Assembly: GCA_965204535.1 (NCBI GenBank)
Contig: OZ241996.1
Coordinates: 864,001-928,000 of the forward strand
Direction of reading: 5' to 3'
Source: a bacterium
GTDB lineage: Bacteria; UBA8248
DNA: 64,000 nucleotides
The position numbers were made by a program, and so were the translations under genes. The first letter of the stretch is position 1. Each line of letters starts with the position of its first letter. The notes beneath the pieces are model-generated. The model did not search any database. It was given only the letters and a program-made list of their open reading frames with translations, and had not been told where the DNA came from. This document shows, one piece after another, positions 17,538 through 23,165 of this stretch.

Positions 17538-18359
17538 TTACAACTTGTTTTCGAATTCTCGCAGAACGAGGCGTCCGCATGCAGAAAATGGAGCCGCACC
17601 ACTCTTGATCTCTTCAACTTTCTCCTTGAGCTTGCTCATTGCATCTTTATTGTCGTGTTGCTGCAACTTTATTGACCTAATTAACAACTTGATCAACCAT
17701 CTTGTGTCGTCGATGTACTTTCTCCTCGTGTCCAGTAGGGTTTCGCGAGCATTCAGCCCAAAAATGTCAATACACTTTTGCCCGCGGTCTGTCTTAGCGA
17801 TTATGACACCGGTATCATCGACTTCAAGGTGATCCTCGGGATTATCCTCTACAGGATTGAGCAGCATAGGGGACTCTTGCGATTCTTCACCCATTTTTCT
17901 TGCTCTAGTCCCCCATATGGGAAATTGATCCCACTTTCCGATCCGCCGACCTGTCTTTGTAGTTGAGGGTCTATTGCAGTCTGCGCAAGCAAAAAGAAGA
18001 TTCCGCCATTCGTATGCGAGCCAATAGTAGCCCGGGTGTGGCTTTGTCGTACCACCTTCAGTCTCAATCTTAATGACTTGCCTCGTCTCATCAGTTACGC
18101 GATTCTTGGGCCGCCAATGTTCAATGTCTCCACGATTATTCACCTGTACATGGGACTCGCAGTACACGCATTTTCCGTAGAAAGGCGCGTTTCCTGATTT
18201 ATATACGCGCTGCATACGCCGGTCCTTATACAAGTTTGTGACTTTCGGTTTCTGCCCTTTCTCCACACTCTCAACCAGTTTGTCACGGGCAACATCGCAT
18301 GCTCGGCGCCATTCTTGCCATTCTGCGTTCGTCGGCTCCTGAAAATCGATCTTGATCAT
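17538..18359 (-). CDS. ptuB: HNH endonuclease, Septu PtuB/retron-effector-like
   Basis: KCVYCES..DIEHWRPK..GYYWLAYEWRNLLFACADCN..KWDQFP; directly downstream of the ATPase. Confidence 0.8.
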   Translation of the reverse strand: MIKIDFQEPTNAEWQEWRRACDVARDKLVESVEKGQKPKVTNLYKDRRMQRVYKSGNAPFYGKCVYCESHVQVNNRGDIEHWRPKNRVTDETRQVIKIETEGGTTKPHPGYYWLAYEWRNLLFACADCNRPSTTKTGRRIGKWDQFPIWGTRARKMGEESQESPMLLNPVEDNPEDHLEVDDTGVIIAKTDRGQKCIDIFGLNARETLLDTRRKYIDDTRWLIKLLIRSIKLQQHDNKDAMSKLKEKVEEIKSGAAPFSACGRLVLREFENKL

Positions 18360-18370
18360 ATGTGCTTATC

Positions 18371-19663
18371 CTAGGCGCCGAACAAATCGCGGAGTTGTCT
18401 TCGCGTCTCTAATCCCAGCGCGTCGCTGTCCAAGTCCTCTAGTACCATTTTGCTCAAAGTGTCGCGAACGGCTTTTTCCACCATGCGCTGCAACTCCGTC
18501 TCCGGCGTCCCAAGCGTCTCATCCACAGTCTTCCAGAGGTTCTCAATTTCCTCGCGAGTGTCATTGTCTGGTGAATTTTGTCGTTTCAATTCAGCGTAAC
18601 GCTCGATGTTCTGAATAACGTCGTCGCTAGTCGTCCATGGCAGCCCAAACAGGTACGAGGTGAGCACCTGGTCCGCACGTTGACCCCTTGGTGGATGAAG
18701 ATTTGATCGAACTTCGACACTATCTTGACCCTGTTCAAAAAGGATCAACTGGCAGCATTCGTCGGAAAGCGAGGCCGACCCAATGGCAGTCAATGGCGCG
18801 TGTGTGCTTGCGATGAACTGAACACCGGGAAATTCCTCAGCAAGCACTCTAACCATTTCACGTTGCCACGATGGGTGGAGATGCCTTTCCATTTCATCGA
18901 GAAGTACGATCCCCCGAACATGAACATCGAACTTGCTGCGGGTAGCGAGAAGCGACCATCCGAGAAAGTCACAGATCCACGCGAGCGTTGCGGCATATCC
19001 ATCGCCGAGCGCGCCTGCGGGAACATAATCACCCCAAAACCCGCGAACCCGCAGGCCGGAAGAATCCAGAACGGTAGAGCCGGGTTGAAGCATTAGAATT
19101 CGATCAATCTGCTGTAATAGTTGCTCGATATTGACTCCCTCCCGTGAGATGCGAAAGAGTGCATTCTCGGGATTCTGGAGTCGAGCCGTATAATTAAAGA
19201 GGGAATATACGGCATCGATAAGGCGGTACTGTTCATAGACTTCACTTCCAATGGTACCGAACGCAGCCCCATAACCACACGCGAGTAGTTCCGAGCGAGA
19301 AAAGCCTTTATCCGGGTTGATTCTTTGTTTAACATCCTCGGTGTTCGCATCGTTTCTCTCAAAAGTTGTGGTTATCGTATAGGTTTCGTTCGACTCAGTT
19401 GTGGAAACAAGTTGCAGTTCTATTTCAGCTTCCTTGCATCCATTGCGAATGACGTTCCCCGATAACTCGGTTAGAAGACCAGAGGCTCCCGTTTGATCGC
19501 AAAGACACATGGCGATGCAACGCAACAAGCTCGTTTTGCCCATGCCATTATTACCGAGAAGCAGTGTCCAACTCGCGTTTTCTTGAGAGGGTGGGGAGAG
19601 ATCAATTTCCACCTTTTCAAAGCATTTGATGTTGGTAAGCTTAATGCGGGAAATGTAGAACAT
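18371..19663 (-). CDS. ptuA: ABC-type AAA_21 ATPase, Septu PtuA-like
   Basis: Walker A GNNGMGKT, signature LGDGY, Walker B LLDEMERHLHPSWQ, switch STHAP. Confidence 0.8.
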   Translation of the reverse strand: MFYISRIKLTNIKCFEKVEIDLSPPSQENASWTLLLGNNGMGKTSLLRCIAMCLCDQTGASGLLTELSGNVIRNGCKEAEIELQLVSTTESNETYTITTTFERNDANTEDVKQRINPDKGFSRSELLACGYGAAFGTIGSEVYEQYRLIDAVYSLFNYTARLQNPENALFRISREGVNIEQLLQQIDRILMLQPGSTVLDSSGLRVRGFWGDYVPAGALGDGYAATLAWICDFLGWSLLATRSKFDVHVRGIVLLDEMERHLHPSWQREMVRVLAEEFPGVQFIASTHAPLTAIGSASLSDECCQLILFEQGQDSVEVRSNLHPPRGQRADQVLTSYLFGLPWTTSDDVIQNIERYAELKRQNSPDNDTREEIENLWKTVDETLGTPETELQRMVEKAVRDTLSKMVLEDLDSDALGLETRRQLRDLFGA

Positions 19664-20104
19664 CCGTGCAACCCCAATCTTACTTTATGTCAGTTCCGAG
19701 CAGATTTGCCCCGGATAGTTCAGACCACTAACGACAATGACCCTTGAGTATAATGTTAGTTTGACCGTCGAGGATATCTCAATTCGGACGCCTCCCACAA
19801 CATGAGGAATTACAGTCTGCTGGAAATGAAAACAAAATGGGTTATGTCTTACTTATCCTCTAATTTCCGAAGGGACGCCCGGCAGGTATTGTGGGACTAC
19901 GACAAGTGAATTCTAGGCCAGTCCTGCCACCAATTTCTACAACGTGTGCTCCCCGTGAAGATGCAGATCTTAGTGCCGGACAAGTATTAGGGGAATTAAG
20001 GCCAGTTGAAGGAACACTTAATAAATGGTTTCGTTATTAAGGCTCGATTAGTTAAATCTTAGTAAAGGAGGTTATTACAACAGCGACTATTGCTGCGCTT
20101 CAAT

Positions 20105-21475: not shown

Positions 21476-21497
21476 TTCATTCTCCTTACACTACCTA

Positions 21498-21962
21498 TCA
21501 CAATGTGCGTTCAATAAATGTCTTTTTGAAGGATACCGCCTTAAAGCGTTTGCTCGTAAATTCCGCTGCGACGTCTGGATCAAAAGGTTTGCAGGAAAAG
21601 ATGTTCACATAAACTGCGCCTAGGATGTCCAGCGTATGAATGACGATGGTGCTCGTCAGTATGAAACAGACGGCTGAAGTGCCCTTGGTGTGCGGCAGCG
21701 TTTGCTGCTCCTCCTCGGGAACTCCTACGTCATCCCAAAAGTGAACCTCACACTTTTCCATTTCAATCAGGTCGCAAAGATCGGTGAAGAACTTGTCAAT
21801 ATAATCCCGGTTGAAAAATCTGGCTTCACATCCCATCAGGTCAAGAACGAGCTCAAAACCATATACTTGACGACTAGCGGTGTCATCATTTTGACTTGCT
21901 AAACTCTCATCTACAGCATTTGGGGCCGCATGTCTCATCAAGCTACTCACCATTCGACTCAC
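21498..21962 (-). CDS. speD: Pyruvoyl-dependent S-adenosylmethionine decarboxylase family proenzyme (divergent)
   Basis: YGFELVLDLMGC, GTSAVCFILTSTIVIHT (TS processing site), NIFSCKPFD. Confidence 0.75.
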   Translation of the reverse strand: MSRMVSSLMRHAAPNAVDESLASQNDDTASRQVYGFELVLDLMGCEARFFNRDYIDKFFTDLCDLIEMEKCEVHFWDDVGVPEEEQQTLPHTKGTSAVCFILTSTIVIHTLDILGAVYVNIFSCKPFDPDVAAEFTSKRFKAVSFKKTFIERTL

Positions 21963-23165
21963 TTAGGACTCTACAGTACCACGCATACGCTGAAACAACC
22001 TTTCAAATCCCATACCTGTAACTACTGCCCATACTACAGAAAGCCCAGCGTTCAACAATCCAGGCTTCGACAAATCTGGAACAGCGGCTCCACTCTTTAT
22101 CAGTTCACCCGCAAGAGCAGAAAAAATCAAAATTCCGGCTAACAGGCCTAGGGGAGCGCCCAATACCATTCGCCATAGCTCCCTCTTCCCAGAAGTAGAA
22201 CCGACTTCAACTTCGTTAGAATTCCTTAGACCAATCAATGCACTGGCAATTGACCCCGCAACACCGAGATAGCCCCAATTCAGAGCGCTCAATGAAAAAG
22301 CATATGAATGTGTAGAATCAGGTATTGAATATAGTATAGGGAGAATCCCCATTAAAGTGAAAACAACTACGCCTACCGAGCCACAAATTCTGATGCTTGA
22401 GACGATTGTCGAGCCTTCCGCCCAGTTATATTCATAGTCAGCTACATGCTCACGTAGTGAGCGGAGATTTGCACGCAGCGCCTCGACCTTATTATTTTTC
22501 TCGTCTTCTTTCTTTTCAATCTCTCGCTCCAGATCATCTATGTTGGAAGTGATCTTCTCTTCCCAACTATAATAAAGACTGACATCGTAAGAAAATGCAT
22601 CTCCATCTGCATATTCCTTAAGTTCTTCAAGGCTTGAGCGGGCACGTGCCTTAAGGTCTTCAATTGGTAGAAAATCAATCAGTAGGCGGTTTAATGTGAG
22701 GATTTGAAACTCCGTCCATCCATCAGGACCCAAATTTTCCAACCGGGACACTTCACTCTTTATTTGCTCCTTCCTTGCAGCGAGGCTGTCTAACATCTCA
22801 GGCTTAGTGGATTTCAGGTCAATGTTTTTCGCTTCTTGGATAAGCGCTTCAACTACACTTAGATCTTCTTTCCGGGCCTTATGGACAAATTGCCTGTGGC
22901 GAATGACAAACTCGGACACTAATCCTGATAGAAATCCCGCTAATGCGAGATAAGTGCAATATGTGCATTTGGGAGCAGTTCCAGGGTTCCCAAAAATTTG
23001 GTTACAAATATAGATGACGTAAAGAATGCCAACTCCCATCACGACTCTGGCAAAATAGAGAAAATAGCGACGCCAGAACGGGAGTTCAGGTGGAAGCTTG
23101 TCTTCCGGGGAGGTTTTTCGTCGCTGGATAGTTTTAGATTGTCCCTCATCAACTTGGTCTGGCAT
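21963..23165 (-). CDS. Multi-pass membrane protein (2 N-terminal TMs, helical soluble core, ~4 C-terminal TMs)
   Basis: Hydrophobic segments read from the translation; its stop abuts the decarboxylase ORF. Confidence 0.8.
   Translation of the reverse strand: MPDQVDEGQSKTIQRRKTSPEDKLPPELPFWRRYFLYFARVVMGVGILYVIYICNQIFGNPGTAPKCTYCTYLALAGFLSGLVSEFVIRHRQFVHKARKEDLSVVEALIQEAKNIDLKSTKPEMLDSLAARKEQIKSEVSRLENLGPDGWTEFQILTLNRLLIDFLPIEDLKARARSSLEELKEYADGDAFSYDVSLYYSWEEKITSNIDDLEREIEKKEDEKNNKVEALRANLRSLREHVADYEYNWAEGSTIVSSIRICGSVGVVVFTLMGILPILYSIPDSTHSYAFSLSALNWGYLGVAGSIASALIGLRNSNEVEVGSTSGKRELWRMVLGAPLGLLAGILIFSALAGELIKSGAAVPDLSKPGLLNAGLSVVWAVVTGMGFERLFQRMRGTVES

Follow-up and report, generated by a model that had tools for sequence, protein, structure and literature searches.

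Five genes lying between mobile elements and a type I restriction-modification (RM) operon in a bacterium of the UBA8248 lineage raise the question of what a decarboxylase and a DUF3326 enzyme do in the company of a membrane protein and a Septu-like nuclease pair. The stretch of DNA analysed, called here the window, comprises 64,000 nt (OZ241996.1, positions 864,001-928,000; GCA_965204535.1), and all positions given below are window positions.

Organization of the locus

The five ORFs are carried by the minus strand and encode, in the direction of transcription, a candidate effector, a membrane protein of 400 aa belonging to no known family (21963..23165), a 154-aa decarboxylase of the AdoMetDC family (21498..21962; PF02675, 57 bits), a long-form DUF3326 enzyme of 456 aa that is likely polyamine-condensing (20105..21475; PF11805, 298 bits), a PtuA-like ABC ATPase of 430 aa (18371..19663; PADLOC E 1.6e-61) and a PtuB-like HNH nuclease of 273 aa (17538..18359; PADLOC E 1.3e-49). 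The successive intergenic gaps are 0, 22, 441 and 11 nt. An earlier, sequence-only reading of this DNA had described five co-oriented genes in this order and place, tightly coupled over the first three, of lower GC than the left flank, set between a mobile backbone and a type I RM operon and without a spermidine synthase in the window. This description was confirmed. The GC content of the five genes (0.45-0.51) lies below that of the genes in the left flank (0.61-0.68) and of the contig as a whole (0.60); the left flank carries an IS transposase, a YspA/SLOG gene, a NikA-like gene and integrases, and the right flank carries a type I RM system with GmrSD, whose RM genes are likewise low in GC (0.46-0.55), plus a SIR2-like gene. 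No spermidine synthase is encoded in the 64 kb, and the speD-speE pair of this genome is found only on another contig, C2. The 441-nt gap before ptuA did not figure in the earlier description.

A second trio is located on C2, without Septu. The two cassettes are found apart in close relatives and are joined in the window, where a membrane-type trio would have gained PtuA/PtuB as a second effector behind its own spacer.

Recurrence of the enzyme pair with exchangeable partners

The neighbourhoods of relatives were compared at loci drawn from two hit lists, the best 80 of 410 in one and the best 80 of 582 in the other, a sample that consequently leans to close kin, with partner profiles seeded from the same loci. 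The linkage of decarboxylase and DUF3326 with their partners recurs far above chance. The two enzymes are adjacent in 105 of the 108 loci having 1.5 kb on both sides, the decarboxylase being of the pyruvoyl type in 54 and PLP-dependent in 51. PtuA/PtuB lies beside the pair in 38/162 loci and the membrane protein in 20/162, while both effectors are present together only in the window (1/162), so that the idea of a five-gene unit is not supported. The largest context consists of polyamine-type metabolic clusters (76/162), containing glutathionylspermidine-synthetase-like, DUF350, K-channel or SecA-like genes. After clustering at 95%, 33 of 129 clusters are Septu-linked, spread over seven phyla, and 17 are membrane-linked. 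Defence genes surround 11 of 13 membrane-type cassettes compared to 3 of 15 metabolic loci. The module is thus neither unconserved nor solely metabolic, and what holds of the sequence-only reading is a conserved, defence-associated association of the decarboxylase and DUF3326 with either the membrane protein or the Septu pair.

Each effector is seen with either type of decarboxylase (L120, L302, L126), for which a diffusible product is a simpler explanation than protein contact. The effector is broken and the enzymes are intact at three loci (L082, L093, L135); the sole reverse case, L279, has broken enzymes beside an intact effector, yet an intact trio lies about 7 kb away. These broken copies, which speak for an inhibitory product, are few in number and may be assembly errors.

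Substrate of the decarboxylase

Residues Ser104, His109 and Cys124, which serve self-cleavage and catalysis in AdoMetDC/SpeD class 1b (roles as described in PMC10407285), are intact in the window enzyme, and the Ser and Cys are invariant across 120 relatives. The enzyme reaches only 30.1 bits with the SpeD model TIGR03330, below the cut-off of 75.65, and its AdoMetDC-family score of 57 bits compares with 136 for the host SpeD. In addition, the same slot is filled by three unrelated families: the pyruvoyl enzyme, an NspC-like PLP enzyme and a PF02666 phosphatidylserine-decarboxylase-like enzyme. All seven PLP partners scanned have carboxynorspermidine decarboxylase as their best match (270-318 bits, under the cut-off of 409; LysA 78-95), and the PF02666 family occupies the slot at 9/65 viral loci, three of the nine being assigned by scanning and the others via clustering. 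At the positions that we take to carry the diagnostic Gln, Thr, Phe and Tyr of the ornithine decarboxylase SpeDC, the Gln is found at -5 in 91/120 relatives and is a Cys in the window, and the window family has Thr at -1, Tyr at +14 and no Phe after the His. The window enzyme belongs to a DUF3326-linked, pyruvoyl-type subfamily with the AdoMetDC fold and is likely not a SAM decarboxylase; the locus suggests a new activity for this fold.

It had been proposed that the decarboxylase makes decarboxylated SAM, or that, as a genuine SAM decarboxylase, it detects a fall in SAM and thereby guards the RM system. The PF02675 match with its intact Ser, His and Cys agrees with this proposal, as does a type I RM system adjoining the pair here and in L012, L063 and L086. 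However, the RM neighbours are not constant across loci, the score lies well under that of SpeD, and substrate changes are frequent among AdoMetDC homologues (PMC10407285, in part). The idea is further weakened because the pyruvoyl enzyme is exchanged for SAM-independent decarboxylases and because a DUF3326 protein, PavB, helps to make a triamine (see below), and we consider it very improbable. The neofunctionalised homologues SpeDC and SpeDA share with the window enzyme the AdoMetDC fold and the lack of a spermidine synthase partner, and are frequent in phages (PMC9992855 and PMC10407285), whereas the window subfamily is distinct, fixed to DUF3326 and swappable with NspC-like enzymes. The defence protein HEC-07 also has an AdoMetDC-like domain (10.1101/2024.01.29.577857, in part) but is a single fusion with thioredoxin-like and RelE domains, without DUF3326.

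DUF3326 and the predicted product

The DUF3326 gene has a TTG start preceded by AAGGAG. The PF11805 match covers positions 3-336 of 337, with 298 bits against a cut-off of 25, and the long form possesses an additional N-terminal domain of about 85 aa. No sequence match was obtained in the PDB, and for the predicted structure (pLDDT 79.8) Foldseek returned nothing at E 0.001 and the ESM Atlas search was empty. In VIA, lumazine synthase scored best (Z 9.4, rmsd 4.0 over 134 residues), level with sugar-binding folds, so that the function cannot be read from the structure.

The sole tested DUF3326 protein is PavB, which together with the decarboxylase PavA is required for N-(5-aminopentyl)pentane-1,5-diamine (bioRxiv 10.64898/2026.06.12.731819). 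By analogy, the window DUF3326 is a probable polyamine-condensing enzyme. As in pavABC, DUF3326 is accompanied by a decarboxylase, there a carboxynorspermidine-decarboxylase-like enzyme that contributes to a triamine. By contrast, the window has a pyruvoyl decarboxylase and defence effectors, and neither the Rieske-fused decarboxylase nor the JmjC hydroxylase is among the neighbours of its DUF3326. In the carboxynorspermidine route, condensation to a carboxylated triamine precedes decarboxylation. In the same manner, DUF3326 would link two amine building blocks to give a carboxylated triamine, from which the decarboxylase would strip the carboxyl group, and the two enzymes together likely make an unusual polyamine. 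In other genomes, homospermidine synthase clusters with gss.

The candidate effectors

The PtuA-like ATPase retains Walker A (G37-K43), Walker B (D256) and His288, and the PtuB-like HNH protein, encoded directly 3' of it after 11 nt, retains two CxxC motifs, H81, N120 and N129. This ATPase-nuclease layout and the strong PADLOC matches are those of Septu type I, from which the window differs in that its PtuA falls into a clade tied to the decarboxylase and DUF3326, and that the enzymes are shared with an unrelated membrane protein. In a quick tree, where this clade has an SH-aLRT of 100, 30 of its 31 ATPases are linked to the enzyme pair, compared to none of the 16 other Septu ATPases. One clade member (G171, L280) has an intact-looking PtuA/PtuB in an assembly in which no DUF3326 was found. 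Stand-alone Septu is reported to defend without a controller (PMC13096335, in part).

In Retron-Septu (Ec78/Eco7), PtuA/PtuB likewise has a partner module, which may act as its restraint (PMC12819146 and PMC12640716, both in part). The window differs in having small-molecule enzymes instead: none of the 30 scanned ORFs, every long neighbour being among them, encodes a reverse transcriptase, and the NCBIfam Ec78 cut-offs for PtuA and PtuB are missed (111/500 and 56/150). A retron-like RNA in the 441-nt spacer upstream of ptuA (19664..20104, minus strand), a spacer kept in two same-genus relatives, was ruled out by the lack of a credible Rfam match, a folding z score of +0.98 and an unfavourable covariation term (3 sequences). 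The spacer also contains a promoter-like site (19782-19753), which is weak since 8 such sites were found and 7.4 are expected by chance. At this distance, ptuA may be transcribed separately.

Hydropathy and the model (pLDDT 79) place two hydrophobic helices at the N terminus of the membrane protein and three or four at its C terminus, with a long helical stretch between them. The protein has no match in Pfam, no fold match in the PDB, only unnamed clusters in the ESM Atlas and a weak coiled-coil as its sole PADLOC match. There are 108 homologues. In searches of 853 genomes every full-length match lies directly before the enzyme pair, and a weak partial match in G1219 is without it. A 25-residue match in viral contigs was judged to be due to chance. 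No RNA holder is listed. In 38/108 membrane-protein clusters the longest contig has the same length as that of a DUF3326 cluster, an indirect observation that is not counted as evidence.

Viral copies of the enzyme pair

Viral contigs carry the enzyme pair, mostly in a shorter form and without effector at 59/65 loci. Searches of GenBank phages and PLSDB plasmids detected no DUF3326 and only distant PtuA. In at least 14 of the 65 loci the viral pair adjoins portal, terminase or capsid genes, a setting easier to reconcile with a simple role in DNA packing than with counter-defence.

A model for polyamine control and its alternatives

Some defence role for the module appears probable, and control of the effector by a small molecule reasonably likely; that the product acts as an off switch is slightly less likely than an even bet. 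In the model that we tentatively favour, though with odds somewhat against it, the polyamine of the enzyme pair keeps the effector off until infection drains it. A constantly made polyamine would keep the linked effector, be it the membrane protein or PtuA/PtuB, from exerting its toxicity. Phage DNA replication and packaging would bind polyamines, or phage acetyltransferases would inactivate them, and the freed effector would abort infection, PtuA/PtuB by cutting tRNA or DNA and the membrane protein by breaking the membrane. This logic is that proposed for Panoptes (OptS-OptE), whose membrane effector is kept in check by a constantly produced small molecule, defence setting in once that molecule is lost (PMC12657218, in part). 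The likeness is hypothetical: the product predicted here is a polyamine, the membrane protein is unrelated, and the two window enzymes belong to PF02675 and PF11805, no nucleotide cyclase such as the mCpol nucleotide synthase being present.

The opposite polarity, in which infection induces the enzymes and their polyamine then activates the effector, would account equally for the fixed pairing, the effector exchange and the defence setting. One synthase module combined with nuclease or membrane effectors is, moreover, the usual layout of CBASS- and Thoeris-type systems. However, viruses encoding the pair would then trigger defence, effector-free viral pairs suit an inhibitor better than an alarm, and no sensor domain is evident except, as a candidate, the N-terminal extension of DUF3326; we regard this polarity as unlikely. 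Marginally less likely still is a direct chemical role, in which the amine would be attached to or shield host nucleic acid so that the nuclease spares the host, or would block phage DNA, the membrane protein being an exporter. In 16/38 Septu loci PtuA is preceded by an MfnB-like aldehyde synthase and in three by an aminoacyl-transferase-like gene, which does suggest a more elaborate product, and polyamines influence phage infection (PMC9992862, in part). Against this stand the lack of a constant nucleic-acid-modifying or ligase gene, the lack of any MfnB match in this genome and a membrane protein without transporter family or fold match. That the trio would make and export a polyamine for host-associated life, with an independent Septu beside it by chance, is improbable. 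The predominance of metabolic contexts, the secondary-metabolite role of PavB (bioRxiv 10.64898/2026.06.12.731819), the 441-nt gap and the Septu-free trio on C2 favour it, but nearly every member of the PtuA clade is linked to the pair, elsewhere in tight operons (11 nt in L128), the trios sit among defence genes and the host already has speD-speE.

To our knowledge, the small-molecule immune signals of bacteria are nucleotide- or NAD-derived, and polyamine-controlled defence, if true, would bring a new chemistry to such signals and assign the polyamine enzymes of phages a definite function. In agreement with the sequence-only reading, our literature search found no description of this gene composition, including a term search of the available part of 10.1101/2025.09.30.679545, although large tables of predicted systems could still list it. 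It is conceivable, with somewhat less confidence than the model itself, that this is the first polyamine-run anti-phage system, with DUF3326 as a new family of polyamine synthases and a pyruvoyl carboxy-polyamine decarboxylase producing a guard molecule for exchangeable nuclease and membrane effectors, and with phages using their own copies of the two enzymes to replenish it or for packing DNA. The locus offers a direct test of the almost unstudied DUF3326 family, which figures in 3 papers, and defines, with its membrane protein, a family of candidate effectors without Pfam or PDB match, and cassettes of two to four genes are easy to test in E. coli.

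Organization of the five-gene locus

The five co-oriented genes that the sequence-only reading had put forward as a candidate defence system are present on the minus strand of the window, and their names are backed by Pfam and PADLOC. They encode a 400-aa membrane protein (23165-21963), an AdoMetDC-family decarboxylase of 154 aa (21962-21498; Pfam), a 456-aa DUF3326 protein (21475-20105; Pfam), a PtuA-like ATPase (19663-18371) and a PtuB-like HNH nuclease (18359-17538; both Pfam/PADLOC), separated in this order by 0, 22, 441 and 11 nt. Their low GC content, remarked on earlier, was also borne out (0.45-0.51 compared to 0.60 for the contig), and the decarboxylase, ATPase and nuclease each retain their catalytic motifs. 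No RNA signal was seen in the 441-nt spacer preceding ptuA, and a promoter-like site in this spacer is no more frequent than expected by chance. Since the host genome keeps an ordinary speD-speE pair elsewhere, the decarboxylase-DUF3326 module is accessory; it was present in 7 of the 61 searched genomes of relatives. A second copy of the trio (membrane protein, decarboxylase and DUF3326), without PtuA/PtuB, is carried on another host contig (G000:C2:2561952-2565030), with protein identities of 57%, 79% and 92%.

By sequence criteria the ATPase and nuclease belong to Septu, whereas the locus falls outside retron-Septu, SpeD, pavABC and Panoptes; HEC-07, in the available part of its description, is an AdoMetDC-like fusion unrelated to the locus decarboxylase. 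This gene composition was nowhere described in the literature searched, and none of the terms for it occurred in a paper on modular defence networks. The module is real and conserved, undescribed in that literature and of predicted function. The present analysis contributes the recognition of a defence-associated unit with the membrane effector, the cassette junction in the window, the test of PtuA linkage by clade, and the copies in viruses.

Conservation of the enzyme pair

The analysis covered the 80 best of 410 DUF3326 matches in metagenomes and the 80 best of 582 in genomes, to which the window itself and the second copy in its genome were added; some loci were retrieved twice, and the annotation profiles had been seeded from this very set. 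A decarboxylase adjoins DUF3326 in 105 of the 108 loci having at least 1.5 kb on each side (54 pyruvoyl, 51 PLP), and it is this enzyme pair that forms the conserved unit. By context, the 162 loci divide into 38 Septu-linked and 20 membrane-linked (the window being in both), 76 metabolic and 29 unassigned, the last mainly short contigs. At 95% identity, 129 clusters remained (Septu 33, membrane 17, metabolic 61, unassigned 19).

The ATPase and/or nuclease lies upstream of the enzymes in 35/38 Septu loci, which span seven phyla (labels from records or tree). An MfnB-like gene (PF04476) precedes PtuA in 16 of the 38 (for example L033:4691-5428) and is itself preceded by an LPG-synthase-like gene in L068, L073 and L074. 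Membrane-type loci include Entotheonella, Alpha- and Gammaproteobacteria, Acidobacteriota and Marinimicrobia. In L004, L006, L055 and their kin, the pair occurs in clusters with GSP_synth, PspA, DUF2170, DUF2491, DUF1190, DUF350, a K channel and a SecA-like gene.

PADLOC was run on flanking ORFs of at least 170 aa in 28 loci picked for long flanks. Matches at E 1e-15 were obtained for 11 of 13 membrane-type loci, nine of them substantial (RM, Ssp, AbiE, IetAS, HEC), and for 3 of 15 metabolic loci, all partial (Fisher p 0.002, a value overstated by kinship).

The window as a junction of two cassettes

Nucleotide comparison identifies the window as a junction of two cassettes. The same-genus loci L235 and L237 share 80% identity with 17.5-21.95 kb, spacer included, and miss the membrane gene, while the second host copy, L002, L238 and L239 share 78-80% identity with 20.1-23.2 kb, ending at the DUF3326 end. 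The window DUF3326 nests among membrane-type loci (FastTree), and its PtuA is nearest to ATPases from operons with the compact order ATPase-HNH-decarboxylase-DUF3326 (L105, 74% identity; L063, 66%). We infer that a membrane-type trio probably acquired PtuA/PtuB and that the membrane gene was later lost in some relatives.

Linkage of the effectors to the enzyme pair

The window PtuA was searched against 802 genomes of two phyla. Not counting the two centre genomes, three of four hits with E of 1e-50 or lower lay with the pair, as against 0 of 22 weaker ones in the stretch read; one of these 22 was accompanied by an MfnB-like gene where its contig stops. A quick tree was built from 47 ATPases, four near-duplicate loci and all fragments below 370 aa being omitted. 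In it a clade with support 100 united 30 linked ATPases and one unlinked, all 16 other unlinked ones lying outside. The linked ones include L279, beside which there is only a truncated decarboxylase; for the unlinked member, G171, DUF3326 was not found in the assembly. The membrane-protein profile matched in 8 genomes out of 853 genome searches, and in seven the gene directly precedes the pair; these are mostly previously known loci, G995 being new, with a PLP-type pair. The eighth match is weak and partial.

Viral copies

A pyruvoyl partner lies nearby in 50 of 65 viral DUF3326 loci. A third decarboxylase family, phosphatidylserine-decarboxylase-like, replaces it in nine on low-GC contigs (L175, L180, L181, L188, L190, L191, L195, L202, L219). 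An ornithine-cyclodeaminase/mu-crystallin-like gene takes the decarboxylase's place just before DUF3326 in three (L176:3939-4865, L209, L233; only L176 scanned), and three have none of these partners. Neither PtuA nor the membrane protein was found in any of the 65. At least 14 viral loci have the pair in head-assembly regions. Its neighbours in L185-L189, L194, L196, L197, L204, L211, L213-L215, L217 and L222 are genes for terminase, portal, prohead protease or capsid, a location that suggests a virus-made polyamine for DNA packing. Phages are reported to encode spermidine acetyltransferases too (PMC9992855).

Enzyme chemistry and possible mechanism

DUF3326-linked AdoMetDC proteins are set apart as a subfamily of their own, whose cleavage site reads Thr-Ser; the corresponding residues in true SpeD are Glu-Ser-His. 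For 7/7 PLP partners, the carboxynorspermidine decarboxylase model was far ahead of others, yet below its cut-off. PavB, the only DUF3326 protein known to have been tested, is needed with the decarboxylase PavA for triamine formation (bioRxiv 10.64898/2026.06.12.731819), and substrate change is reported to be frequent among AdoMetDC homologues (PMC10407285). Glutathionylspermidine synthetase clusters are also a setting of the pair, and elsewhere this synthetase clusters with homospermidine synthase (PMC9992855). Taken together, these data argue against the decarboxylated-SAM chemistry first proposed and for a SAM-independent route in which DUF3326 would condense and the decarboxylase would finish, the step order and product being predicted. 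Structure searches were of no help on enzyme function; the available text of PMC13625781 does not name the DUF3326 family, and that of PMC4284462 merely lists it close to a ferredoxin gene.

Two unrelated effectors each occur with either decarboxylase, which points to a diffusible product as the pair's probable output to them. Our tentative reading is that the pair would make a polyamine constantly and so keep the effector off; infection would lower the free polyamine and release the effector, whereupon Septu would cut tRNA, as reported for stand-alone Septu (PMC13096335), or the membrane protein would act. Such logic would resemble that described for Panoptes, a small molecule made constantly to restrain an effector (PMC12657218). 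This polarity is favoured because viruses carry synthase copies and because broken effectors sit beside intact enzymes (L082, L093, L135). Against it stand G171, having a clade PtuA without a detected DUF3326, the functionality of stand-alone Septu and the packaging-type location of viral copies. The reverse, in which an infection-induced polyamine would activate the effector, is doubtful.

The diffusible amine could instead mark a target or act as a chemical defence, which we regard as rather unlikely. That the trio is metabolic cargo unrelated to defence, with Septu a neighbour by chance, is improbable when the many metabolic contexts are set against the ATPase clade and the defence setting of membrane-type loci. 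A true SAM decarboxylase sensing SAM depletion to protect the adjacent RM system would be compatible with the AdoMetDC family assignment; given the chemistry argued for here, it is very improbable. Constant synthesis restraining the effector is the reading we retain, tentatively.

Other features of the window

The region 23682-33514 is taken up by a type I RM operon, into which a GmrSD (HEC-05-like) gene is embedded and which an HsdR fragment precedes; a YgjP-like peptidase is also encoded there, and a SIR2-like gene follows (33714-34973). A HEC-03-like two-gene defence candidate lies at 57376-59267. An IS66-type transposase and a DruA-like gene form a tandem duplication at 36819-43572, with copies 3421 nt apart. 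Ankyrin-repeat genes are found at 11165-12478 and 46619-52535, including three paralogues arranged in tandem that also give Sel1 and peptidoglycan-binding matches. A NikA-like gene (16893-17342) has nine more matches in the genome, and a perfect 44-nt direct repeat lies upstream of it (16272-16373).
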